Below are positions 3,636-60,259 of a stretch of 64,000 nt of DNA, piece after piece. Location of the stretch: sequence record OQ599310; one strand, 5' to 3'. The notes beneath the pieces were generated by a model. It ran no database searches and had not been told where the DNA came from. It worked only from the letters and a program-made list of their open reading frames with translations. Origin of the DNA: Escherichia phage 55. Both the position numbers and the translations under genes were made by a program. Position 1 is the stretch's first letter. Every line of letters starts with the position of its first letter.

Positions 3636-3664
3636 GTTTACTTTTCCTCAGGTTGTGTTATAGT
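3636..3664 (+). promoter_or_regulatory. early promoter (sigma70-like, -35 GTTTAC, -10 TATAGT, 17-nt spacer)
   Basis: GTTTAC 3636..3641, TATAGT 3659..3664. Confidence 0.55.
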
Positions 3665-3691
3665 AGACCTTACTTACTAGAGGAGAACATT

Positions 3692-3871
3692 ATGACACGT
3701 AAAGAAAAAATTTCTAAGTTAATGTTTTTGATTGAAGAGTACGCTAATGCGGTATCTGATTGGGAAAATGCTCATGGTTGCGAAGATGGAGACATCGACA
3801 TTAACAGGGCCATGAAAAAGATGGCTGATACGCACACCGAATTGCAAATGTATGTTAACGAGATTATGTGA
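3692..3871 (+). CDS. hypothetical small protein (59 aa)
   Basis: GAGGAG RBS before ATG at 3692; track ORF 3623 extends upstream through the promoter. Confidence 0.5.
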   Translation: MTRKEKISKLMFLIEEYANAVSDWENAHGCEDGDIDINRAMKKMADTHTELQMYVNEIM

Positions 3872-3878
3872 GGATATT

Positions 3879-4088
3879 ATGCTTTACGATTATACTGGAA
3901 AATCTGAAGACGGTGTACTTGAACTTTTACCTGAAAGCGCTGAAGATGACGATATGACGACGGTGATGTTTTGTAAAAATGGCCCTGGGGATAAGGGATG
4001 GATTTATCTTCGTCAAGAAAATGACTTAATTGTTTTGGACCCTAAACAAGTTGAAGAACTTTATCAACATTTAAAACACAATCGGTAG
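3879..4088 (+). CDS. hypothetical acidic protein (69 aa)
   Basis: GAGGA RBS before ATG at 3879. Confidence 0.5.
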   Translation: MLYDYTGKSEDGVLELLPESAEDDDMTTVMFCKNGPGDKGWIYLRQENDLIVLDPKQVEELYQHLKHNR

Positions 4089-4126
4089 TTTACAACTTGA
4101 TAGGACTATGTTATAGTAGTCCTATC
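4088..4126 (+). promoter_or_regulatory. early promoter with 10-bp inverted repeat spanning the -10
   Basis: GTTTAC 4088..4093, TATAGT 4112..4117; GATAGGACTA / TAGTCCTATC arms. Confidence 0.55.
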
Positions 4127-4145
4127 AAACCGAACGGAGAACAAA

Positions 4146-4256
4146 ATGAAACTTTTGCTTATCGCTTATGTTGTAGTACAATACAATTATCCGATGTTTA
4201 CTTATAACATGGTAAACGGCATAGTGAATCTTATTGAAATGAGTATGGTAAAATGA
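4146..4256 (+). CDS. small hydrophobic ORF (36 aa), not in track
   Basis: GGAG RBS before ATG at 4146; stop overlaps next start as ATGA. Confidence 0.3.
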   Translation: MKLLLIAYVVVQYNYPMFTYNMVNGIVNLIEMSMVK

Positions 4257-8252: not shown

Positions 8253-8281
8253 GTTTACAAGGTCTATGATTATGTTATTAT
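8253..8281 (+). promoter_or_regulatory. early promoter with inverted repeat
   Basis: GTTTAC 8253..8258, TATTAT 8276..8281; GGTCTAT/ATAGACC arms. Confidence 0.5.
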
Positions 8282-8308
8282 AGACCTATCAACTACTGGA
8301 GGTAAAAC

Positions 8309-8836
8309 ATGAACGCTAAAGATATTTTCAACCTGGTAAATTATAACGACGGTAAATTTAAATCTGAAGCACAAAGCAAGTTCTTTAATGACGTTGCTTA
8401 TGGTAACGAGATTACCGTAGACGGAGGTCAGATTTTCAAATCTCGCTGGAATTGGATTGTTATCATCGATTCAGTTGGAATTGTGGAAGTCTACAAAAAC
8501 ACCAACAAAAAACGTACATTATTCTGGTCTCGTGAAACTAACGAGCAGTACAAAAAGGATAAAGCATCTCGTTTATCCAAAGTAACCCAGGAAGATATCG
8601 AGTTTATCAAGAAAGATATCGAGATGTACGAAAATTTAATCGCTGAAGACCAGGCAGTACTCGATAAGTTTGATGAAATTAAAGCTTCTCGTGAAATCCC
8701 TGACTTCATGAAAGAAACAGTAAACGAACGATACGCTCTCACTTCAGAACGTATTGCAAACTATACAAAACAGAAAGCAGAACGTATTAGTACTCTTCGG
8801 AAATTTGAAGAACGTTTAAAGACGGTTCACGCATAA
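8309..8836 (+). CDS. hypothetical protein (175 aa)
   Basis: GGAGG RBS before ATG 8309. Confidence 0.6.
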   Translation: MNAKDIFNLVNYNDGKFKSEAQSKFFNDVAYGNEITVDGGQIFKSRWNWIVIIDSVGIVEVYKNTNKKRTLFWSRETNEQYKKDKASRLSKVTQEDIEFIKKDIEMYENLIAEDQAVLDKFDEIKASREIPDFMKETVNERYALTSERIANYTKQKAERISTLRKFEERLKTVHA

Positions 8837-9894: not shown

Positions 9895-9923
9895 TGTACA
9901 ACCAAGGATGGTTGGAGTATAAT
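9895..9923 (+). promoter_or_regulatory. early promoter, copy 1 of conserved ~30-bp promoter repeat
   Basis: TGTACA-ACCAAGGATGGTTGGAG-TATAAT. Confidence 0.55.
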
Positions 9924-10913: not shown

Positions 10914-10943
10914 GTTTACAACCAAGGATGGTTGGAGTATAAT
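10914..10943 (+). promoter_or_regulatory. early promoter, copy 2 of conserved promoter repeat
   Basis: GTTTAC-AACCAAGGATGGTTGGAG-TATAAT. Confidence 0.55.
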
Positions 10944-18447: not shown

Positions 18448-18476
18448 GTTTACATCCTCAATAGATGTGTTAAGAT
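18448..18476 (+). promoter_or_regulatory. early promoter (-35 GTTTAC, -10 TAAGAT)
   Basis: GTTTAC 18448..18453, 17-nt spacer; CTCAATAGATG/CATCTACTATAGAGG inverted repeat. Confidence 0.45.
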
Positions 18477-18504
18477 TAAACCATCTACTATAGAGGAAAA
18501 TAAA

Positions 18505-18687
18505 ATGACAATTGAAGATAAAGAAATTAAGGTCGACCAGTACTATTCTGTCAACGGTAATGCAGTACAGATAACCAGAGTTTCAAGCCTGGATGTTTGG
18601 TACCGTTCAATCAAATATCCAGAAATTGGTGAAATGCTTTGTGACCGTGGTATCTTCTGTTCAATTGCGAAGGAAATTAAGCCATGA
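18505..18687 (+). CDS. hypothetical small protein (60 aa)
   Basis: GAGGAAAA RBS before ATG 18505. Confidence 0.5.
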   Translation: MTIEDKEIKVDQYYSVNGNAVQITRVSSLDVWYRSIKYPEIGEMLCDRGIFCSIAKEIKP

Positions 18688-19572: not shown

Positions 19573-19583
19573 TAGTTTATGAT

Positions 19584-19610
19584 GGTAGGAAGAAGTGTTA
19601 TCTTCCTACC
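19584..19610 (+). promoter_or_regulatory. promoter-associated inverted repeat (GGTAGGAAG/CTTCCTACC)
   Basis: 9-bp perfect inverted repeat between GTTTAT -35-like hexamer and the RBS of ORF 19628. Confidence 0.4.
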
Positions 19611-19627
19611 AATTTGAGGAGAATATC

Positions 19628-19867
19628 ATGGAACAAGAATTAGACATTATTACATCGAAAAAACGTCTTGAAGTTGTAGTGACCGGCTCAACTATTAAGT
19701 TTGTATATGACACTTTAACTGATGCTATTACCGTTAGTTGTGGCGGAAAGGCTTTTAGTCTAGATTCTACTGAAAACAAATACCCGTTCTATAAAGGTAT
19801 CTTTGATATGGGTGTTGATATCAGTGTTCGTCAAGCAAACTATTTACATTATCTTATCACGAAATAA
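19628..19867 (+). CDS. hypothetical protein (79 aa)
   Basis: GAGGAG RBS before ATG 19628. Confidence 0.5.
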   Translation: MEQELDIITSKKRLEVVVTGSTIKFVYDTLTDAITVSCGGKAFSLDSTENKYPFYKGIFDMGVDISVRQANYLHYLITK

Positions 19868-20763: not shown

Positions 20764-20807
20764 TGCTTTAAGATAGGTCTCTAAATATTATGATATAATA
20801 GACCTAT
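20764..20807 (+). promoter_or_regulatory. promoter region of gene 55 (TGCTTTA box, TATAAT, ATAGGTCT/AGACCTAT inverted repeat)
   Basis: TGCTTTA 20764..20770; TATAAT 20794..20799; 8-bp inverted repeat flanking the -10. Confidence 0.4.
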
Positions 20808-22130: not shown

Positions 22131-22304
22131 GTGACGAACATCCCGACTTCTGAAAATTTCGATAAAATCCGTAAAGGCAAAGCAGAAAGAACGAGACGTT
22201 TTAAAGAGTCTTATGATAAAGCTAAAGCCGAAGGAACTATTACATACAAGCCCATTCGATTTAAAAGTTCAAATGAGCCTCTGTACGGTGTACTATGTGG
22301 ATAG
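22131..22304 (+). CDS. possible GTG-initiated small ORF (57 aa), not in track
   Basis: GAGAGG upstream, basic protein-like sequence, stop abuts the terminator hairpin. Confidence 0.2.
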   Translation: MTNIPTSENFDKIRKGKAERTRRFKESYDKAKAEGTITYKPIRFKSSNEPLYGVLCG

Positions 22305-22327
22305 GAACTCTTCGGAGTTCCTTTTTT
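22304..22327 (+). terminator. stem-loop terminator with UUCG tetraloop
   Basis: GGAACTC-TTCG-GAGTTCC + TTTTTT. Confidence 0.6.
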
Positions 22328-25558: not shown

Positions 25559-25584
25559 ACGCTTTAACACGATGTGGTTATAAT
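25558..25584 (+). promoter_or_regulatory. middle promoter (MotA-box-like GCTTTA + TATAAT)
   Basis: aacGCTTTA 25558..25566, 12-nt gap, TATAAT 25579..25584; ATGTGGT/ACCACAT inverted repeat around the -10. Confidence 0.45.
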
Positions 25585-25612
25585 GACCACATCAAATTAA
25601 ATGGAGAACAAC

Positions 25613-25801
25613 ATGGAGTATTCAACCGGACAACATCTTCTTGTTGTCCCTGAAATTAAAAAATATGTTTTGACCAATACGTTTTCAGGTGAAGAACATA
25701 TTGTTACTGAACAAATGCTCAAATCTGCTTTTAAAGATGAGTATAATAAAATAATGTCTAATCGCAATTCCGCATGGACAGTTACTGACTTCTACGAATA
25801 A
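25613..25801 (+). CDS. hypothetical small protein (45.2-like)
   Basis: GGAGAA RBS before ATG 25613. Confidence 0.5.
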   Translation: MEYSTGQHLLVVPEIKKYVLTNTFSGEEHIVTEQMLKSAFKDEYNKIMSNRNSAWTVTDFYE

Positions 25802-28933: not shown

Positions 28934-28938
28934 AGCAA

Positions 28939-28957
28939 TGGGACTTCGGTCCCATTT
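28939..28957 (+). terminator. stem-loop with UUCG tetraloop after regA
   Basis: TGGGAC-TTCG-GTCCCA + TTT. Confidence 0.5.
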
Positions 28958-36865: not shown

Positions 36866-37764
36866 TGGCTATTTTCCGCGTACCAATCTTGAGTATGCGG
36901 TCTTATGAAACTGGACAGTATGCTATCCTTAAGGATGGCAACTTCCAACTTCATTTGCACCGTGCTAATCCAGGTGATGTGATTACATATCCACGTAATG
37001 CATCTGATATTAAAGAATGCGAACGTCTTTTCCCAGAATTTAAGTTTGTTCCATTATGGTATAAAGATAACGCGTATAACACTCGTAAATATTTCTGGTC
37101 TGAAAATGAATTTGTGGTTGATTCATTAATTGCTTATTATGATTGTGATTTTCTAATCACAGATATCACCGGATATGACGGCGCTTTTGATGTTGAATTC
37201 AATTTCAATATCACTGCAGACCCTAATAAACCACGTTTTTATATTGACGAATTCTTAAAAACCGATATGTTGTCGGTTAATCGTTCACTTCAAACTACTG
37301 TGTTGAATGAACGTCAAAAAGAAGTGCTGGTTAACGCAGGTGCAGATGGTAATAAGATTATCGTAACGCAGAAAGTTATACGTCCTTCCATCATGCAGCG
37401 TCTTGTAGGTGATTTGGCCCCTATTCATCTAGATGGTATTTTTCATCCATTTCGAATTAGTGACCCATGCTATCGTTTTGAACAAGTGGTTGAATGTGCA
37501 ATTCAATTAGGTCAACCGCTTTATATAACCGATCCAAATAATAGTTTCGACAGAAATAAGTATCCTGAAGAAGCGCTGATTCGAATTTTTAAACCAACTA
37601 AAACTGAGTACTATCAAATTCTTAAAGGACGACCGAAGATTCAATATTTCGAAAATCCTGAAGAAGTATTCCATCCAGGTCTTGGCGAGTTCATCTACTT
37701 TAATGCTTTAATTTCTTCGCCGTATAATATACCTAAATACGAAGATGTCGTAATCGAGGAATAA
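36865..37764 (+). CDS. hypothetical protein (299 aa) at the T4 beta-gt locus
   Basis: TAATG-coupled to gene 42; no family motif recognised; not similar to T4 beta-gt as recalled. Confidence 0.6.
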   Translation: MAIFRVPILSMRSYETGQYAILKDGNFQLHLHRANPGDVITYPRNASDIKECERLFPEFKFVPLWYKDNAYNTRKYFWSENEFVVDSLIAYYDCDFLITDITGYDGAFDVEFNFNITADPNKPRFYIDEFLKTDMLSVNRSLQTTVLNERQKEVLVNAGADGNKIIVTQKVIRPSIMQRLVGDLAPIHLDGIFHPFRISDPCYRFEQVVECAIQLGQPLYITDPNNSFDRNKYPEEALIRIFKPTKTEYYQILKGRPKIQYFENPEEVFHPGLGEFIYFNALISSPYNIPKYEDVVIEE

Positions 37765-37765
37765 A

Positions 37766-38314
37766 ATGGCTAAAATTATTTTAGTAGATGGCCCAGATAA
37801 TGCCGGTAAAACAACTTTCATTAATGACATAATGGAAATTAGTGAAAGATACGTAAAGATTGATTTCCCTAAACGAACAGTTGATGGACGTTTCGATGTT
37901 AAGTCTCGAAATGAAGTTGGTTGTTTCGAAACGATGTTGAATTATTTAGACCCTACTAAGATTTATCTGTTAGACCGTGGATATATTAGTAACTGGGTTT
38001 ATGGACGTATTCGACAAGATGCGGACTCTGTTCTTGATGTTTATGAGCAGGATTATGTTCGTCTTTGCCAAAACCATGATGTGTTCACAATTATTTTAAC
38101 ACGTAACGAAATGACTGAAAGTTTTGAAGACGACCTTATTACTTTGTCTTCATTCGGTTTTAATACAGTCATTTCACATTTTGAAGAGTTTGCAATTCAT
38201 AACAAAATCCAAACGTATCAATTACTTAATCATGATGGTGCTAACAAAGTTATAGGATTTAATGCAAGCGAACGTAATGGTTTGATTATAGAAATCATCA
38301 AATGGGCTCGTTAA
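37766..38314 (+). CDS. P-loop kinase-like protein
   Basis: ILVDGPDNAGKTTF Walker A near N-terminus, typical of small (d)NMP/nucleoside kinases. Confidence 0.5.
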   Translation: MAKIILVDGPDNAGKTTFINDIMEISERYVKIDFPKRTVDGRFDVKSRNEVGCFETMLNYLDPTKIYLLDRGYISNWVYGRIRQDADSVLDVYEQDYVRLCQNHDVFTIILTRNEMTESFEDDLITLSSFGFNTVISHFEEFAIHNKIQTYQLLNHDGANKVIGFNASERNGLIIEIIKWAR

Positions 38315-39585: not shown

Positions 39586-39919
39586 TCTCGATGATTTAAA
39601 TCTAGAAATCGTTGATGAATCCCCTTCTTCGGAAGGGGAAGACATTCGCAAAGAACGAGTGTTTAATGAATCTCTTAAAATTATCCGTTCAGCAATGGAA
39701 AATGTCATTCAAGAGATTCTGATTACACTTGAAGATGGTTCTCATCATATAGTCTATATTACAAAACTAGACTGGGTTGATGGTAAAATCGTAATGGACT
39801 TTGCAGTTCTTGACCAGGACAGAAAAGCAGAACTTGCACCGCATGTTGAAAAATGTGTTACAATGCAAGTACAACAAGCTTTTAATGAACGGGCCAAGAA
39901 AAAATTTAAATTCTTTTAA
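39578..39919 (+). CDS. 40: gp40-like protein
   Basis: ATG 39578 overlapping uvsX stop; track ORF 39434 is an implausible in-frame extension inside uvsX. Confidence 0.6.
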   Translation: MNNLDDLNLEIVDESPSSEGEDIRKERVFNESLKIIRSAMENVIQEILITLEDGSHHIVYITKLDWVDGKIVMDFAVLDQDRKAELAPHVEKCVTMQVQQAFNERAKKKFKFF

Positions 39920-41371: not shown

Positions 41372-41377
41372 TAAAAA

Positions 41378-41397
41378 GGAGACTTCGGTCTCCTTTC
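41378..41397 (+). terminator. stem-loop terminator with UUCG tetraloop after gene 41
   Basis: GGAGAC-TTCG-GTCTCC + TTTC. Confidence 0.55.
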
Positions 41398-41458
41398 GGG
41401 GTTTACATCTTCCTCTAGGCATGATATGATGAACTTACACAAACCAAGAGGAAACATT

Positions 41459-41833
41459 ATGAATATGTCTCAAGCAATTTTTACTGCAATCACCGAAAAC
41501 ACAACTGTTGAAGTAGTTTCTCCGCTGGCAACCTACGTTATTCTTGCTCCTAAAACTATTGTATCTCGTATGGAAAACATGGGCAAACGTATCGTACAAA
41601 TCGTTGGAGCCGGAAATCAAAAACTTGATTATCTGCGAACCATCAAAGCTTATGAACATTTCCAACTCGAAAAAGGTTCTCCTATCCAGGTAGAACTCGT
41701 AAATGGTGATATCGTTCGAGCAATGTTCCATCATTTCTATGCATTGAATGACCCATCTAAAGCGGTTCGTTTAATTGCATACGACGCAAACCAAAACGAA
41801 ATCAATGCAGATATATCTAAATTACGTTTTTAA
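41459..41833 (+). CDS. hypothetical protein (124 aa)
   Basis: AGAGGAAA RBS before ATG 41459. Confidence 0.55.
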   Translation: MNMSQAIFTAITENTTVEVVSPLATYVILAPKTIVSRMENMGKRIVQIVGAGNQKLDYLRTIKAYEHFQLEKGSPIQVELVNGDIVRAMFHHFYALNDPSKAVRLIAYDANQNEINADISKLRF

Positions 41834-41880
41834 GTTTACTTCTCCAGTAGTTGTGTTATTATAGACCTATCAACTACTGG
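41834..41880 (+). promoter_or_regulatory. early promoter with 10-bp inverted repeat whose downstream arm overlaps the RBS
   Basis: GTTTAC 41834..41839, TATTAT 41857..41862; CCAGTAGTTG 41844..41853 / CAACTACTGG 41871..41880. Confidence 0.55.
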
Positions 41881-41888
41881 AGAACAAA

Positions 41889-42206
41889 ATGAAAACCATC
41901 GATTGTAAAGCAGAATTTAAGATTTTTTATCACGGTTCAAGTAGTTCAGTTAACATCGAAAACATGCTTTGTCCTCCTGAAGAAACAGGAGTTCTGTCTG
42001 AAACTGGACGTAAGAAAAACTTGGATCGTGTATTCTTTACTGAAGATATCGGTTTAGCAAAGATTTATGCAGGACGAGCAGCACGCTCTTATGGAGGTGA
42101 ACCACGTCTCTATCGAGTAATTTCTCCGGTAGACGTAGTTCAAATGAATGATACTAAAGGTGCTACAGTTTATCACGCTGAATGGGCCTTCTGTGAGGAA
42201 ATCTAA
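41889..42206 (+). CDS. Arr-like (rifampin ADP-ribosyltransferase family) fold protein
   Basis: FYHGSSS...RVFFTEDIGLAKIYAGRAA...GEPRLYRVISP parallels Arr motifs FYHGTKA...HIYFS...GYIYIVEPTGP as recalled. Confidence 0.4.
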   Translation: MKTIDCKAEFKIFYHGSSSSVNIENMLCPPEETGVLSETGRKKNLDRVFFTEDIGLAKIYAGRAARSYGGEPRLYRVISPVDVVQMNDTKGATVYHAEWAFCEEI

Positions 42207-42565: not shown

Positions 42566-42600
42566 GTTTACAGGGGTCTATGGTAGTGATACTATAGACC
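42566..42600 (+). promoter_or_regulatory. early promoter (GTTTAC + conserved ACTATAGACCTATC box; GGTCTAT/ATAGACC inverted repeat)
   Basis: GTTTAC 42566..42571. Confidence 0.5.
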
Positions 42601-42623
42601 TATCAACTATAGAGGAAATTGAA

Positions 42624-42992
42624 ATGAAAAAATTAATCGCTTTAGCAATGGTATTTGGATTAACCGGATGTGGTGCTCATGGCTTTATCCCTAATAACGT
42701 TGGCCAATTGATTTATAACCCGAATGTTAAACAGTATAACCAACCTAAAGTTGAAGTGGAAGACCCGGTTACTGTAGGTAATCGAATGATTCAAGCTGAT
42801 GCTCATGCTCAACGTTATCGTGACTCTGATACTGTAGCTATGTCAAAAGAACAACGCGTTAAAGAACATTGTCTACAGGCTACTGAAATCGCATTTATTC
42901 GCTATGTTGAAACAACTGGTAAAGAGCCTACCCAGAAACAAATCGCGAATAACTACGTCCAGTGTATTGAACGTTTAAACAAATTTAATTAA
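42624..42992 (+). CDS. predicted lipoprotein
   Basis: MKKLIALAMVFGLTGC lipobox; AGAGGAAA RBS before ATG 42624. Confidence 0.5.
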   Translation: MKKLIALAMVFGLTGCGAHGFIPNNVGQLIYNPNVKQYNQPKVEVEDPVTVGNRMIQADAHAQRYRDSDTVAMSKEQRVKEHCLQATEIAFIRYVETTGKEPTQKQIANNYVQCIERLNKFN

Positions 42993-43053
42993 TTGGTTTA
43001 CACCAAAGTTAAACCAAGATACTATAAACATAACAAATCAAGAGGAAATTAAC

Positions 43054-43306: not shown

Positions 43307-43345
43307 GTTTACATTATAGATGGACTATAGTATAGTAGTCCTATC
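43307..43345 (+). promoter_or_regulatory. early promoter (GTTTAC, TATAGT) with inverted repeat
   Basis: GTTTAC 43307..43312, TATAGT 43331..43336; GGACTA/TAGTCC arms. Confidence 0.5.
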
Positions 43346-43365
43346 AAATCAACTAAGGAGTTAAA

Positions 43366-43659
43366 ATGAAAAAGTTATCATTGGCAGCAATCCTACTTGC
43401 AGTATCATGTGCACCGGCTCCAGTTACGGCAGGTTATGATAAAGACCTCTGTGAGTGGTCAATGACTGCAAATCAAGAAGATGTTGAACAACAAATCTTC
43501 TCTGATATCATGAACATCACTAAACGAGACCGTCCTAATATGGTTAATAAAGTTGTTGAACAACTTAAGTCTGGCGGTATCATGCAGTACAACTATGTTT
43601 TGTATTGTGACCCTAATTTCGATAACAAAGATATCGTAACCGAAATCACAGGTGAATAA
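43366..43659 (+). CDS. exported protein, Spackle (sp)-like by size, signal peptide and position
   Basis: 97 aa; signal peptide MKKLSLAAILLAVSCA; between genes 41 and 61 as T4 sp. Confidence 0.4.
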   Translation: MKKLSLAAILLAVSCAPAPVTAGYDKDLCEWSMTANQEDVEQQIFSDIMNITKRDRPNMVNKVVEQLKSGGIMQYNYVLYCDPNFDNKDIVTEITGE

Positions 43660-45036: not shown

Positions 45037-46059
45037 ATGGCTGAATGGATAGATAATGAATTTGCTTATCGTGCGTTTTCTCACCTACCTCGTTTTAGAC
45101 AAATCAATAATTCAAGCACATTTAAATTAACATTTCGATGCCCAGTTTGTGGCGACTCTCAGACAGATGCAATGAAAGCCCGCGGATGGTATTATGGCGG
45201 TACTCCAGGTAATGTGCATTGCTATAACTGTCAATATCATAATACAATTTCTGGATACTTAAAAGAGTACGATGAAGAGCTTTATCGCGAGTATCTAATG
45301 GAAGTTCGTAAAGAAAAAGCTAGAATGGAACCAAAGATTGAAAAGGTTCCTGAAGCTAAGCCGGAGCCAGAGAAAAAGACTATAAATTCTTTGCCGTCTT
45401 GTTCTCGTCTGGACAAGCTGCCTGAAGAGCATCCTATTGTGAAATATGTTAAGTCTCGGTGTATTCCTAAAGAATCGTGGAACAGATTATGGTTCACATT
45501 AGAATGGCCCAAATTGGTCAACAAGATTCAACCTGGTACGTATAAGAAAGAGATTCCCGAACCACGTTTAGTGATTCCTATTTTTAATAAAGACGGGAAG
45601 GCCGAGTCATTCCAAGGACGTGCACTTCGTAAAGATGCTCCTCAGAAATATATCACTATTAAAGCGTTTGAGTCTGCAACAAAAATTTATGGTGTTGAAC
45701 GTGTTAAGGAAGGGGACGTCTGGGTAATGGAAGGCCCTATTGATAGTTTATTCATACCCAATGCAATCGCTATTACAGGCGGCTCAATAGATTTAGATGT
45801 GGTACCATTTAAAGAACGTCGGGTATGGGTAATGGATAATGAACCTAGGCATCCGGATACTATAGCTCGTATGAAGCGATTAGTTGATGCAGGCGAACGT
45901 GTCATGTTCTGGGACCGAGCTCCATGGAGATCAAAGGATGTGAATGATATGGTAATGAAAGAAAATGCAACACCACAAGAAATTTTAGAATATATGAAAC
46001 AGAATATTTCAAGTGGGTTGCATGCTAAAATGAGATTATCTCGTTATTCGAAGATTTAA
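45037..46059 (+). CDS. 61: DNA primase gp61
   Basis: N-terminal zinc ribbon CPVCGDS...CYNC; TOPRIM-like region. Confidence 0.9.
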   Translation: MAEWIDNEFAYRAFSHLPRFRQINNSSTFKLTFRCPVCGDSQTDAMKARGWYYGGTPGNVHCYNCQYHNTISGYLKEYDEELYREYLMEVRKEKARMEPKIEKVPEAKPEPEKKTINSLPSCSRLDKLPEEHPIVKYVKSRCIPKESWNRLWFTLEWPKLVNKIQPGTYKKEIPEPRLVIPIFNKDGKAESFQGRALRKDAPQKYITIKAFESATKIYGVERVKEGDVWVMEGPIDSLFIPNAIAITGGSIDLDVVPFKERRVWVMDNEPRHPDTIARMKRLVDAGERVMFWDRAPWRSKDVNDMVMKENATPQEILEYMKQNISSGLHAKMRLSRYSKI

Positions 46060-46253
46060 ACAAGCCCTATAATAGCAAAGGCCAAATCAACTACAGTATC
46101 CAATGGAACAGAAGGAACCATAACACCATGGGCAACTAACAATGGTGCAATCCCGAAGTTCCATGAAATAATGCCACCTACAACTATTGCAGCGATAGCA
46201 GTTTTCTTTTTATTGCCTTTAATAGCGTTGATTAACGATGGAAGTTTAAACAT
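46056..46253 (-). CDS. small membrane protein on the minus strand
   Basis: AAGGAG RBS 7 nt upstream of ATG (minus strand); two hydrophobic segments; convergent with gene 61. Confidence 0.5.
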   Translation of the reverse strand: MFKLPSLINAIKGNKKKTAIAAIVVGGIISWNFGIAPLLVAHGVMVPSVPLDTVVDLAFAIIGLV

Positions 46254-47516: not shown

Positions 47517-47525
47517 ATAATTTAA

Positions 47526-47551
47526 GGAATCCTTCGGGATTCCTTTTTTTT
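47526..47551 (+). terminator. strong rho-independent terminator (UUCG tetraloop, U8 tail) after soc
   Basis: GGAATCC-TTCG-GGATTCC + TTTTTTTT. Confidence 0.75.
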
Positions 47552-48869: not shown

Positions 48870-49030
48870 AAGAGAAATTTAAAGAGAAATTCTTACTAGA
48901 AATCAAGGAAAAAGACTTTGAGACATGGTATCGAATGGTGAAAGGGTTGACATTGCTTTTTAAAGCATCTTTATTCATGTTAGAACAACCCGGTCCTGAT
49001 GGTCCTTTAGTAGGAAAGCTTAAAAAGTAG
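48866..49030 (+). CDS. small ORF (54 aa), not in track
   Basis: ATGA-coupled; Lys-rich. Confidence 0.3.
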   Translation: MKEKFKEKFLLEIKEKDFETWYRMVKGLTLLFKASLFMLEQPGPDGPLVGKLKK

Positions 49031-49058
49031 TTTACATTCCCTCCTCTCGTGTTATGAT
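49030..49058 (+). promoter_or_regulatory. early promoter (GTTTAC, 17-nt spacer, TATGAT)
   Basis: GTTTAC 49030..49035; TATGAT 49053..49058. Confidence 0.5.
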
Positions 49059-49085
49059 AGGCTTATCTTTAAATGGAGGTCTATC

Positions 49086-49667
49086 ATGACATGTCAATCT
49101 GAACTTCAAGAACGCGAGTATCTCGCAGCACTAATTAACGATAAATTCACTAAACAAGAACAAAACATTCTCTGGGCTTGCACCGATTCTAAGGAAGACC
49201 CGGATTTCCACTATGAATTAGACCATCTTGTTCGTAAGCATATGACTTCTACAGTACCAGTAGAACTCTACCGTGGTGTAACTCCAGAAGAAGTAGAACA
49301 TCTTTCCCTTCTTTCTGTTGGATGCCATTGGTCTCCTGGACGAGTAACATCGTTCACAACTGATTTCAGTACGGCTCGTCAATTCTCTGGGAGATGGGAA
49401 TATCAGACGTACACTATTCTTAGTCTCAGGAATGCTCCATTCATTTTTGATTACTACCAAAACATGGTTAACATTGTACTCGCCGGAAAGAATCCTAAGC
49501 ATGTTATGGAAGAAACGCGCGTTGACGTCCTAGATATGATTGAATCTGAACAAGAGTACATGGTCTCAGGCATCTCTAGATTTGAGATTGTGGAAATTGA
49601 AGACTTAGAATATGACCCTTTATCTCGATTATACAAAATCATTCATTTGAAAATGTTGAATTTTTAG
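49086..49667 (+). CDS. modA: mono-ADP-ribosyltransferase, ModA-like
   Basis: R / S-T / E-x-E ART-type motifs (YRG..., SFTTD, EQEYMV); first of two tandem paralogs. Confidence 0.5.
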   Translation: MTCQSELQEREYLAALINDKFTKQEQNILWACTDSKEDPDFHYELDHLVRKHMTSTVPVELYRGVTPEEVEHLSLLSVGCHWSPGRVTSFTTDFSTARQFSGRWEYQTYTILSLRNAPFIFDYYQNMVNIVLAGKNPKHVMEETRVDVLDMIESEQEYMVSGISRFEIVEIEDLEYDPLSRLYKIIHLKMLNF

Positions 49668-53549: not shown

Positions 53550-53579
53550 GTTTACAACCAAGGATGGTTGGAGTATAAT
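53550..53579 (+). promoter_or_regulatory. early promoter, copy 3 of conserved promoter repeat
   Basis: GTTTAC-AACCAAGGATGGTTGGAG-TATAAT. Confidence 0.55.
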
Positions 53580-55057: not shown

Positions 55058-55106
55058 GTTTACTTCTCCTCTGGTTTTGATATTATAACCATATCAACCA
55101 GAGGAG
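55058..55106 (+). promoter_or_regulatory. early promoter with 11-bp inverted repeat whose downstream arm contains the RBS
   Basis: GTTTAC 55058..55063, TATTAT 55081..55086; CTCCTCTGGTT 55066..55076 / AACCAGAGGAG 55096..55106. Confidence 0.55.
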
Positions 55107-55112
55107 AATAAT

Positions 55113-55637
55113 ATGTTAGTTTACCGCGTAGAACGTAGTTTTTGTACTCAACGTGAATCATTACCAGGAATTGTTATCGAAGACGGTAAAGCCGTCAGAA
55201 TTTGGGAAACCTCTTGGAATAAAGAACCTCGCTCACCTTACGGTTGGTCTGGCACTGACAACTCTGAAGAAACATGGGAGTTCCTTGATAAGCATGGAAT
55301 ACTCTCAGGTAACTTCTACCATCACGGCGACAACTATAATGTCCCTAATCGTCCTACTGTAAATGAGGACAAACTTCTTGAACAAAATATCTTAAGATAC
55401 TACAGAATTGAGCACACATTTGAATTGAACGAAGATTGGGCTCAAGGGTTCTATTTTGGATTTGAAAGTGTTGACGCGGTTTATGCATGGTTTGATGACC
55501 AGGTGGATGTTGAACTCTTGAAAGCTAAAGGATACTACATCGCGGTCTATGAAGCACCTGATTTCATCCTCGGAAGTTGTCAATTAATGTTTAGACGTTC
55601 ATTGGCAGAACAAGTTGATTTTATTTTGCTAAAATGA
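55113..55637 (+). CDS. hypothetical protein (174 aa)
   Basis: GAGGAG RBS before ATG 55113. Confidence 0.55.
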   Translation: MLVYRVERSFCTQRESLPGIVIEDGKAVRIWETSWNKEPRSPYGWSGTDNSEETWEFLDKHGILSGNFYHHGDNYNVPNRPTVNEDKLLEQNILRYYRIEHTFELNEDWAQGFYFGFESVDAVYAWFDDQVDVELLKAKGYYIAVYEAPDFILGSCQLMFRRSLAEQVDFILLK

Positions 55638-58865: not shown

Positions 58866-59966
58866 ATGAAAGTTATGTTTATCCCATCTCGTGCAGTCCC
58901 ATTTAATCCTGACCGTGTACAAGGTGGTCTTGAAGCAGTACATTTAAATGTGTTGAAATATTTAGTTTCTATCGGTGCCGATATTGATTATATTGGTTTT
59001 GATAATGACACATTTGGTGATTGGAAGGTTAATCATCATCCTGTTGGTCATCTGACTAAATTCAGTCTAGGTATGAGTTATACTATGGCTCGTAAGATTG
59101 TTGAACTAGCCGGCATCCATGAATACGATTTTGTTGTTACTATGGAACCGACTAAACTAACCGTTCAGGCAATTAAAGACGCAGGTCTCTCTAAAGTTCA
59201 TAAGAATTTTATGGCAACACCATTTGAACCGGTATCTCGTGGCATTGTTCAAATTTGGGACCAGACTATTCAAATTCATAAGAACGGTGGTAAGAGTTAT
59301 GCTCCTACTAAAGCCTTCCGTGAATTTGAACGTAAATATTGTTATATGACTTCAGGTCTGACTGACAAAATTGATTATGATTATTGGCGAGCAAATCCGT
59401 TGTTTGAAGCCGAAGATTATCCGGTTATTTGTTTGAATGAGAAACCTGAAGTTCTTCCGGCGACTGATCTGATTATTAGTGCACAACGTTATGACACTAA
59501 AATGCGTCGTACTGATGTTGCTCTTGAAGCGATTAAAGCACTAGGCGAAAATGGTGCAGGATACTGTCCTAGTAAATGGGCACCACCAGCTAAATATCCT
59601 GTTATTATTGATGCTCCACACAGTGAAATTATGGAACGTCTTAAAACAGCTAAAGCACTTATTAATACGTGTCCTGACACAGGTACGGTAGAGAATAGTT
59701 CTATTGAAGCCATCTCTAAAGGTGTCCCTGTAATCCAGCTAGTTTTTAAGGATTATCCTCATGCGACATTTGAATACGACCCAGATACTGTGCGTGTAGA
59801 AATTGATTCCTCTACTCCTAAGAAAGAAGTAGTTGCGCTTTACACAAAAGCTGTATTAGAATTCACTGACACATACGAAGCTCGAGTTAAACGTGCTGAA
59901 GCAGTATGGAAGAAGTATAACCGAGATGCGGTTGTTGCGATGTGGGATAAAATCTTCACAGCGTAA
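58866..59966 (+). CDS. GT-B-fold (GT4-like) glycosyltransferase; candidate DNA hydroxymethylcytosine glycosyl(arabinosyl)transferase
   Basis: N-terminal GGLEAVHLNVLKYLVSIG and C-terminal E-x7-E-like ENSSIEAISKGVPVI; sits where T4 has gene 60/mobA; no alpha-/beta-gt homolog elsewhere in the window. Confidence 0.5.
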   Translation: MKVMFIPSRAVPFNPDRVQGGLEAVHLNVLKYLVSIGADIDYIGFDNDTFGDWKVNHHPVGHLTKFSLGMSYTMARKIVELAGIHEYDFVVTMEPTKLTVQAIKDAGLSKVHKNFMATPFEPVSRGIVQIWDQTIQIHKNGGKSYAPTKAFREFERKYCYMTSGLTDKIDYDYWRANPLFEAEDYPVICLNEKPEVLPATDLIISAQRYDTKMRRTDVALEAIKALGENGAGYCPSKWAPPAKYPVIIDAPHSEIMERLKTAKALINTCPDTGTVENSSIEAISKGVPVIQLVFKDYPHATFEYDPDTVRVEIDSSTPKKEVVALYTKAVLEFTDTYEARVKRAEAVWKKYNRDAVVAMWDKIFTA

Positions 59967-59981
59967 ATCCTGAATCGCCTG

Positions 59982-60032
59982 AGGCACTATTACACATAAG
60001 ATGATAGATTATATGGTCTTTAGTAATAGTGC
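59982..60032 (+). promoter_or_regulatory. 11-bp perfect inverted repeat bracketing a promoter-like region upstream of rIIA.1
   Basis: GGCACTATTAC 59982..59992 / GTAATAGTGCC 60022..60032, 29-nt spacer containing GATGATAGATTAT. Confidence 0.4.
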
Positions 60033-60058
60033 CCTAGGAATCTACTGAAGAGAATATT

Positions 60059-60259
60059 ATGAGAACATATAACGTGGACTTGGAACTTTTTGATAAAGCA
60101 GTGCTCCGGGAATTCCGGCTTATCCAAAGATTTTTTGATATCGAGTCAGCAGAGTCCTTTAAAGAACGCTTTAAAGAAATTCGATATAAAATACAAACCG
60201 ATACAGCTACTAAAGAAGAACTTCTTGAAGTAGCAGAAATTTTTAAACGTAACTTGTGA
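60059..60259 (+). CDS. rIIA.1: rIIA.1-like small protein
   Basis: 66-aa ORF immediately upstream of rIIA; AAGAGAA RBS. Confidence 0.5.
   Translation: MRTYNVDLELFDKAVLREFRLIQRFFDIESAESFKERFKEIRYKIQTDTATKEELLEVAEIFKRNL

Follow-up and report, generated by a model that had tools for sequence, protein, structure and literature searches.

Early promoters of a T-even phage embedded in hairpins, some of which are predicted to hide the ribosome-binding site of read-through RNA

Results

Early-promoter cassettes in the window

The stretch of DNA analyzed here (hereafter, the window) comprises 64,000 nucleotides of Escherichia phage 55 (record OQ599310). It shares 98.9% identity with Escherichia phage LH01, which is an RB69-like T-even phage (Mosigvirus). 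The window covers the main early region, with gp43, uvsX, gp41, dmd, imm, sp, gp61, dda, dexA, MotB-like genes, gp39 and rIIA/B on the plus strand. An initial annotation had drawn attention to inverted repeats that are embedded in early promoters of this region, including one at 41834-41880, and the present analysis concerns these promoters and their repeats. A regular-expression scan of the window detected 16 highly uniform plus-strand cassettes, each composed of the hexamer GTTTAC, a spacer of 17-18 nt, a -10 hexamer, a stretch of about 28-32 nt, and an ATG preceded by a Shine-Dalgarno (SD) sequence. The promoters thus have the form GTTTAC-N17/18-TAnnnT, often with a TGn-extended -10, and their -35 box matches the consensus of T4 and RB69 early promoters. 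The genes behind them are early genes, among them those for MotB-like and ModA/B-like proteins and the open reading frame (ORF) that precedes dmd. The T4 GenBank and RefSeq records carry no promoter or start-site features, and all transcription starts mentioned below are predicted from the position of the -10, 7 nt downstream of it.

The promoter at 41834 contains a perfect 14-bp inverted repeat on the plus strand. Its -35 hexamer (GTTTAC, 41834-41839) is followed directly by the upstream arm, TTCTCCAGTAGTTG (41840-41853), which lies within the promoter spacer and includes the anti-SD run CTCC (41842-41845). The extended -10 (TGT followed by TATTAT, 41854-41862), identified in a promoter scan by the TG before the second hexamer, is located in the hairpin loop. 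Standard sigma-70 spacing places the transcription start at the A of ATCAAC (41869). RB69 early promoters prefer C at positions -3 to -1 (Nolan 2006), and the CC at -3/-2 of the predicted start (ACCT before the A) agrees with this preference. The downstream arm, CAACTACTGGAGAA (41871-41884), contains the SD sequence GGAG (41879-41882). When 41834-41891 was folded, a minimum free energy of -21.7 kcal/mol (z = -5.5) was obtained, versus -1.0 kcal/mol for the transcript predicted to start at the promoter itself. In read-through RNA the SD is predicted to be unpaired with a probability of 0.00, which rises to 0.78 in the transcript that starts at the promoter itself. Since the start site follows the upstream arm, only read-through RNA can form the hairpin.

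The gene behind this promoter (41889-42206, plus strand) encodes a protein of 105 residues (phrog_2110) and is located directly before dmd. Its orthologs are found in 50 T4-like loci, with 55-99% identity across about 50 T4-like genomes of several genera. T4 lacks this ORF, and its dmd gene directly follows gene 41. A co-directional ORF (41459-41833, plus strand) lies upstream; its stop codon (41831-41833) is positioned 6 nt before the upstream arm. This ORF is the source of read-through RNA from another cassette promoter at 41401, and no terminator-like site was found between 41401 and 41834.

Two classes of promoter-embedded hairpins

The arrangement at 41834, which we name class A, consists of an anti-SD run (CTCC or CCTC) directly after the -35 that pairs with the SD. 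It is present at 41834, 55058, 41401, 18448 and 3636, and in a variant form at 49030, all on the plus strand. The -10 is in the loop, and the predicted start coincides with the 5' end of the downstream arm or slightly precedes it. The predicted probability that the SD is unpaired is 0.00-0.06 when the spacer is part of the RNA, against 0.63-0.87 when the RNA begins at the predicted start. The stems at 41834 and 55058 contain 14 and 13 perfect pairs, respectively. The latter cassette (55058-55115) precedes a MotB-like gene; its arms are 55064-55076 and 55096-55108, with the SD in the downstream arm, and it folds with -23.9 kcal/mol (z = -7.3), compared with -0.9 kcal/mol for its predicted own transcript. 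At 41401-41461, TTCCTCT (41410-41416) pairs with AGAGGAA (41447-41453), and the SD is unpaired with a probability of 0.00 versus 0.75. At 18448-18507, TCCTC (18455-18459) pairs with GAGGA (18493-18497), complemented by an inner helix (0.02 versus 0.66), and at 3636-3694 the spacer sequence TTCCTC pairs with GAGGAG (3680-3685; 0.00 versus 0.68). In the variant at 49030-49088, located before a gene for a ModA/ModB-like ADP-ribosyltransferase, the pairing partner of ATGATAG in the -10 region (49054-49060) is CTATCAT, a segment spanning the start codon. The spacer of this cassette also holds an anti-SD run, CCCTCC, and T4 modB has the same design.

In the second class, class B, the hairpin brackets the -10 and ends at the predicted start. 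The upstream arm extends from about -30 to -15. The downstream arm begins in the 3' half of the -10, passes through the conserved box ..(A/T)CCTATCAA and reaches about +3; the SD is unpaired and lies 7-12 nt beyond the downstream arm. Class B hairpins are present in five plus-strand cassettes and, in addition, at 20773 and 25571. In the cassette at 4088-4148 the arms (4097-4108 and 4117-4128, 12 bp) surround the -10 and leave the SD uncovered, with a fold of -19.3 kcal/mol (z = -5.3). The cassette at 8253-8311 contains AGGTCTAT and ATAGACCT (8260-8267 and 8280-8287), and that at 19575-19630, which has the weak -10 TATCTT, contains TGGTAGGAAGA and TCTTCCTACCA (19583-19593 and 19601-19611, 11 bp). 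In the cassette at 42566-42626, GGTCTATGGTA (42575-42585) pairs with TACTATAGACC (42590-42600) with one G.U pair, and in the one before the spackle gene (43307-43368), GGACTA pairs with TAGTCC, with a bulged extension. Class B hairpins leave the SD free, and therefore the repeats as a whole cannot be explained by SD occlusion. At 42993, the hairpin overlaps the -35.

All the inverted-repeat arms quoted in the initial annotation were found in place. Its view that the downstream arm reaches the ribosome-binding site (RBS) holds for 5-6 of the 16 GTTTAC cassettes; in five the arm stops 7-12 nt before the SD, and five are devoid of a notable hairpin. Its examples at 4099, 8261, 19584, 41844 and 55066 belong to early promoters, but the one at 25571 flanks the -10 of a middle promoter with a MotA box, and no promoter was recognizable at the arms 59985-59993 and 60023-60031. 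The arms at 41840-41853 and 41871-41884 and those at 55064-55076 and 55096-55108 are 14 and 13 bp long.

Hairpins at middle promoters, terminator-like hairpins and other features

The hairpin at 25571-25593 (plus strand) is formed by GATGTGGT and ACCACATC (25571-25578 and 25586-25593) around the -10 of the middle promoter GCTTTA-N12-TATAAT. Inverted repeats flank the -10 of two MotA-box middle promoters, at 25560-25615 and at 37700-37766 (TGCTTTAA...TATAAT), with TCTTCG/CGAAGA at the latter, and therefore the hairpin habit is wider than the early promoters. Middle-promoter counterparts in phage nt-1 have been named PmSLs (Comeau 2014, PMC4122927).

None of the promoter-embedded hairpins is followed by a T tract and none was flagged as terminator-like; their identification as intrinsic terminators was rejected for lack of the T tract. 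Separate from them, five hairpins with a UUCG tetraloop are present at 22303-22322, 28937-28956, 39620-39639, 41375-41396 and 47524-47545, several of them just upstream of promoters. T runs follow the first and last of these, at 22303-22322 and 47524-47545, which resemble true terminators; the other three have no clear T tract. A UUCG-type hairpin with a T run and a MotA-box promoter are also located in the roughly 60 nt upstream of the start of gp39, the topoisomerase subunit gene (57006), at which the SD is predicted to be occluded (unpaired probability 0.05); one review includes T4 gene 39 in its list of genes with a sequestered RBS.

An 11-bp inverted repeat with a 29-nt loop, GGCACTATTAC/GTAATAGTGCC (59983-60033), is located between a gene ending at 59966 and a small ORF at 60059, and neither GTTTAC nor a MotA box could be recognized at it. 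Between the primase and dCTPase genes, the minus strand contains an ORF for 65 residues (46056-46253) that is annotated as hypothetical in LH01, where it is the sole annotated minus-strand gene in the approximately 10 kb examined. Screening the whole window with Rfam covariance models at the gathering score resulted in no matches.

Spacers are complementary to their own downstream segments

The promoter repeats exceed what is expected by chance, as judged from repeat counts, from fold z-scores of -5.3 to -7.3 and from the pairing of cognate segments. Window-wide, perfect inverted repeats with stems of 8 bp or more number 56, versus 38 +/- 5 in shuffled sequences. Stems of 10 bp or more occur in six repeats of the 64 kb; four of these are inside promoter cassettes, which make up about 1.4% of the sequence. 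In about 60% of the cassettes the spacer can pair with a segment located at the start site or beyond it. When each of the 16 spacers was joined to the downstream segment of every promoter, the mean duplex energy was -12.6 kcal/mol for cognate and -8.2 kcal/mol for non-cognate combinations, the cognate mean being reached in none of 20,000 permutations, and 7-8 of the 16 cassettes ranked their own partner first.

An identical sequence of 23 nt, TATAGACCTATCAACTACTGGAG, forms the -10 and 5' untranslated region (5'UTR) at 8279 and 41860, under different spacers: the 8253 spacer complements ATAGACCT, giving a class B hairpin, and the 41834 spacer complements CAACTACTGGAGAA, giving a class A hairpin. 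As the same 23 nt are paired by two different spacers, the upstream arm is tailored to its partner rather than co-inherited with it as one palindrome. In addition, a 26-bp promoter core, ACAACCAAGGATGGTTGGAGTATAAT, is present in three exact copies (9898-9923, 10918-10943 and 53554-53579), each before a different gene and one of them behind a -35 of the TGTACA type, which suggests cassette duplication or gene conversion.

Promoter hairpins in related phages

The comparison was extended to 20-kb loci around orthologs of the 105-residue ORF in about 50 T4-like genomes; this ORF was used instead of the gp61 primase, which as a query gave just two loci. The cassette finder yielded 141 matches on the gene strand and 14 on the opposite strand. 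The 141 matches correspond to 119 unique cassettes, from which 66 representatives with less than 85% similarity were retained. Among these, cognate spacers again paired best (z = -9.5; 0 of 20,000 permutations), and duplexes of -12 kcal/mol or stronger were formed by 30% of the cognate against 5.5% of the non-cognate combinations. Helices with a score of at least 10 were present in 23 of the 66 cassettes (6.6 expected), and none of the 23 lies wholly within the promoter's own transcript. These counts come from a survey rerun at scores of at least 9 and at least 10; a score of at least 7 was too permissive, giving helices in about 75% of shuffled cassettes.

Both classes recur in T4-like phages with wholly different arm sequences. 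When eleven class B cassettes were aligned in a single register, 11 of 13 pairs had changed on both sides, and the covariation score was 0.49, versus 0.26 in shuffles and 0.07-0.18 with the partners slid; the percentage of paired positions in this alignment is biased, since the sequences were chosen for pairing in that register, and only the count of both-side changes is informative. Scored without regard to type, the internal mismatches in 38 distinct helices comprised 11 G.T, no A.C and 6 others; they represent about 5-6 independent events, some are at -10 or TGn positions, and one A.C was seen by eye in the locus L068. The excess of G.T over A.C points to pairing in the sense-strand RNA.

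The initial annotation had proposed selection on pairing, based on upstream arms that change to match the downstream box. The compensatory change (AGTCC/GGACT versus AGACC/GGTCT) was confirmed. Together with the covariation of the arms within the genome and across phages, the G.T count and the two spacers tailored to one 23-nt box, these sequence comparisons provide good support for such selection.

Orthologs of the 41834 promoter, preceding ORFs 77-99% identical to that of the window, keep (A/T)TCTCC directly after the -35, and their inner helices vary: CAGTAGTTG/CAACTACTG, CTGTAGG/CCTATAG, CAAGGC/GCCTTG (with a G.U pair in one phage) and TTGG/CCAA. In two lineages, L061 and L065/L066, an intrinsic terminator (GGGGC..GCCCC-TTTTT) and, behind it, an extended -10 promoter take the place of the segment containing the -35 and the anti-SD run, about 70 nt upstream of the 41889 ortholog; the 5'UTR CAACTACTGGAG is retained. 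In more distant phages, a class B hairpin occupies this position. Among the 119 unique cassettes, 31 have only a strong promoter hairpin, 20 have only an upstream terminator and one has both; the terminator is thus present in 1 of 32 cassettes with and 20 of 87 without the hairpin (odds ratio 0.11, p = 0.013, for cassettes that are phylogenetically non-independent). The replacements in orthologs and the near-exclusion of hairpin and terminator fit elements that deal with transcripts coming from upstream. The cassette at 55058 resembles cassettes found at another locus in other phages.

Predicted occlusion of SD sequences

Occlusion of the SD was scored within 62 nt of upstream context, and genes lacking a promoter, which are translated from read-through RNA, served for comparison. 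In the window, the SD is predicted to be occluded at 6 of 15 early-promoter genes, 3 of 9 middle-promoter genes and 8 of 80 promoter-less genes, that is, 9 of 24 promoter-proximal versus 8 of 80 promoter-less genes (p = 0.003). T4 (100 kb) gave a similar result, with 7 of 18 early-promoter versus 12 of 115 promoter-less genes (p = 0.005). Anti-SD 4-mers occur in 14 of the 66 representative spacers, against a background of 8%, and in 12 of these 14 they are within the first 10 nt after the -35. A test with chimeric cassettes, in which 21% of cognate and 20.5% of chimeric combinations were occluded, is uninformative, because the SD is common to all cassettes and any anti-SD spacer occludes any SD; it was replaced by nulls with random spacers and by the controls with real genes.

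In T4, class A promoters precede seven genes: motB.2 (-23.7 kcal/mol), alc (-24.4), alt.-3 (-23.0), ndd.4 (-20.9), modB (-18.0), 30.8 and mrh.2. At modB, the -10 region pairs with the segment from the SD to the AUG. Class B hairpins are present at T4 dmd (GACAAGACTA/TAGTCTTGTC) and 30.7. The annotated start of ndd.4 (166764 of NC_000866) is an ATG within ctATGGAGGaac that has no SD; the ATG 15 nt downstream (166749) has a canonical GGAGG, and both are in the class A hairpin. The annotated ndd.4 start may therefore be wrong.

Discussion

Relation to published elements

The cassettes of the window resemble the PeSLs (early promoters with a stem-loop) described in RB49/phi1, PST/T4 and nt-1/KVP40 (Arbiol et al. 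2010, PMC2839356; Comeau et al. 2014, PMC4122927). In those studies, the stem-loop occupies one of five positions: in the AT-rich sequence upstream, overlapping the -35, within the -35 to -10 interval, overlapping the -10, or after the -10 and before the start; the authors regard them as terminators or attenuators and as recombination linkers. The features shared with PeSLs are a repeated intergenic cassette, about 60-100 bp long, that unites a strong early promoter of the sigma-70 type, AT-rich sequence upstream of it, a stable stem-loop, an SD and an ATG; the possible location of stem-loops in the spacer or over the -10; G-T pairs in the stems; and the exchange of cassettes between phages. 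All 16 GTTTAC cassettes have this composition of a sigma-70-like early promoter, SD and start codon in a short intergenic unit. Sequence repetition is also present, in the form of the 26-bp core in three copies, the 23-bp box in two and the promoter segment swapped in orthologs.

With respect to position, the class B hairpins (over the -10), the 42993 hairpin (over the -35) and the upstream UUCG hairpins match published subclasses, and class B is within the published description of PeSLs. Class A, which extends from the spacer to the SD, is outside the five positions, and the published PST/T4 stem-loops differ in lying upstream of the promoter. Translation and ribosome binding are not mentioned by Arbiol et al. 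(PMC2839356), and Nolan et al. (2006), who predicted 57 RB69 early promoters, noted no repeats in them.

Class A shares its second ingredient with a group of genes whose RBS is sequestered in long transcripts and freed by an embedded promoter, namely T4 e, soc, 49, I-TevI/II/III and segB and Aeh1 mobE. In the e/soc/49/I-TevI type, pairing engages the SD or AUG of transcripts that come from upstream promoters, and a promoter within the DNA for the 5' arm or loop yields a shorter RNA without that arm, as is predicted for class A. This mechanism, including translation of the shorter RNA, is proven for the T4 late genes e, soc, 49 and I-TevI, and for class A it is predicted from the folds. Moreover, the late type uses the gp55-dependent late promoter TATAAATA, which delays expression until late, whereas class A has a sigma-70 early promoter; neither this late promoter nor a late gene is found at the class A cassettes. 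According to reviews, all T4 cases regulated by a hairpin are late genes. We found no prior description of an early promoter within an SD-sequestering hairpin, although the older T4 literature was outside our coverage and may contain an earlier mention. Class A thus combines two known ideas, the PeSL and RBS control of late genes.

Two other known elements are similar in part. The seg43(25) gene of Aeromonas phage 25 has a very stable hairpin just 5' of an unsequestered RBS, like class B, but no early promoter is present there. Intrinsic terminators, including the T4 UUCG type, are likewise stable intergenic sense-strand hairpins that act on upstream transcripts, but the promoter-embedded hairpins lack their U tract.

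Control of read-through RNA

The interpretation that we favor, with somewhat more than even confidence, is that the cassettes are of the published PeSL type, that class A hairpins would control the SD of read-through RNA, and that class B hairpins would provide insulation at the RNA level. In class A, for which the physical prediction is strong, a helix of 12-14 bp would close over the SD once it has been transcribed, and the RBS of the read-through RNA would be shut. The promoter's own transcript would start in the loop, lack the 5' arm and be unstructured and translatable. Consequently, a class A gene would be expressed essentially only from its own immediate-early promoter. The extension of early transcripts continues past the shut-off of early promoters, and synthesis of a class A protein would end with this shut-off despite the continuing transcription from upstream. 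The untranslated read-through RNA would be exposed to Rho, and its GGAG would be shielded from RegB. Class B hairpins would most likely, as our best guess, act on upstream transcripts, as an insulator or attenuator or as a barrier to decay from the 3' end; the sole experimental hint for this is a published reporter assay with an RB49 stem-loop. The initial annotation had offered the reading that read-through RNA hides its RBS and promoter-proximal RNA is open; the predicted SD accessibility agrees with this for class A, and the reading does not fit class B, which is about as common.

A broader version of this interpretation is that sigma-70 promoters in SD-sequestering hairpins are a general T-even device, found at about 40% of early-promoter genes, the seven T4 genes with class A promoters among them, which restricts translation to the gene's own transcript and yields portable autonomous cassettes, PeSLs being RNA insulators rather than terminators. 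We put this forward tentatively, as the less probable of the two formulations.

Several observations weigh against control of the SD as the function of the hairpins. About half of the strong hairpins are of class B and do not touch the SD. The fraction of SD-occluded cassettes, 21%, is only slightly above the 15-16% obtained when spacers are shuffled or drawn at random from the genome. Several of the class A helices are just 5-7 bp long with loops of about 30 nt, and are therefore probably weak. The hairpins are not conserved at orthologous genes; for instance, T4 motB.2 has one and its ortholog in the window, at 53550, has none. At 41834 itself, a ribosome terminating at 41831-41833 may cover the anti-SD run and transiently open the SD. 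Finally, many of the statistics rest on related, non-independent sequences.

Alternative explanations

The published reading of PeSLs, according to which the stem-loops terminate or attenuate upstream transcription and the cassettes serve as linkers for modular shuffling, is in our view rather unlikely. In its favor, a PeSL stem-loop of RB49 reduced downstream expression in a published lacZ assay as much as rrnB T1 did. The five published subclasses include stem-loops over the -10, G-T pairs have been noted, and the exact repeated cores of the window and the 55058-like cassettes at another locus in other phages are in line with shuffling. The near-exclusion of hairpin and terminator would also be expected if both do the same job. 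However, the promoter-embedded hairpins have no T tract, and true terminators with UUCG loops and T runs exist separately, upstream of some of the promoters. This reading also leaves unexplained why class A arms target the SD and why the anti-SD run follows the -35 directly. Moreover, a role in recombination needs conserved sequence, not intramolecular complementarity between arms that vary.

A role in RNA stability or processing is somewhat less probable still. Class A hairpins would then shield GGAG from RegB, and class B hairpins would block 3' exonucleases or scanning by RNase E, so that cistrons decay independently. The targets of RegB are GGAG motifs in early SDs with A-rich sequence behind them, secondary structure inhibits the enzyme, and most middle transcripts are resistant. 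The SDs of the window are of the GGAGAACAAAA type, and class B hairpins are located 7-12 nt 5' of such sites. In class A, however, shielding from RegB is inseparable from blocking of the ribosome, and regB itself is outside the window.

The remaining alternatives are less likely. Translational coupling, in which the SD on read-through RNA stays closed unless the ribosome that ends the upstream ORF melts the anti-SD arm, is in our view improbable. In its favor, the upstream stop codons at 41834, 49030 and 55058 end 5-10 nt short of the upstream arm, and at 41834 the edge of the terminating ribosome would reach CTCC (41842-41845). Against it, that edge barely reaches the stem at 55058, and at 3636 and 41401 the upstream stop is 39-52 nt away. 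The stop-to-ATG distance is about 55 nt.

More improbable again is that the repeats are a functionless by-product of template switching at quasi-palindromes and of cassette duplication, which would perfect repeats in the sole non-coding DNA. T4 is the classic system of quasi-palindrome mutagenesis, exact cassette duplicates are present, and hairpins have been gained and lost between orthologs. Such a process does not explain the stereotyped placement of the arms, the bias of mismatches to G.T, the retention of the anti-SD run in diverged orthologs while inner helices change, or the absence of strong helices within the promoters' own transcripts, nor that SD occlusion is about four-fold enriched at promoter-bearing genes in two phages.

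The repeats could also be palindromic operators at which a dimeric repressor shuts early promoters off. They overlap the -10 and start site, the classical operator position, and the shut-off of these promoters is not understood, but we rejected this reading as highly implausible, since the arms differ fully in sequence between promoters and keep their complementarity, the signature of a nucleic-acid structure and not of a protein-binding site in common. Symmetry due to divergent promoters was dropped, as the reverse complements of the arms give no TAnnnT hexamers.

Implications

How the synthesis of many T4 early proteins is switched off within minutes has been explained only in part; RegB has a share in it, and the mechanism by which early promoters are shut off is not known. 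If class A works as predicted, a large subset of early genes would be translated only from their own short-lived promoter, and some of these genes encode products that are toxic for E. coli (ModA and MotB in T4). The hairpins would then constitute a simple cis-acting off-switch, which would explain how cassettes can move between genomes without upsetting their neighbors, and which could be relevant for the design of insulated expression cassettes. Such control would be the mirror image of that of the late genes e, soc and I-TevI, and would contradict the statement in reviews that hairpin regulation in T4 is confined to late genes.

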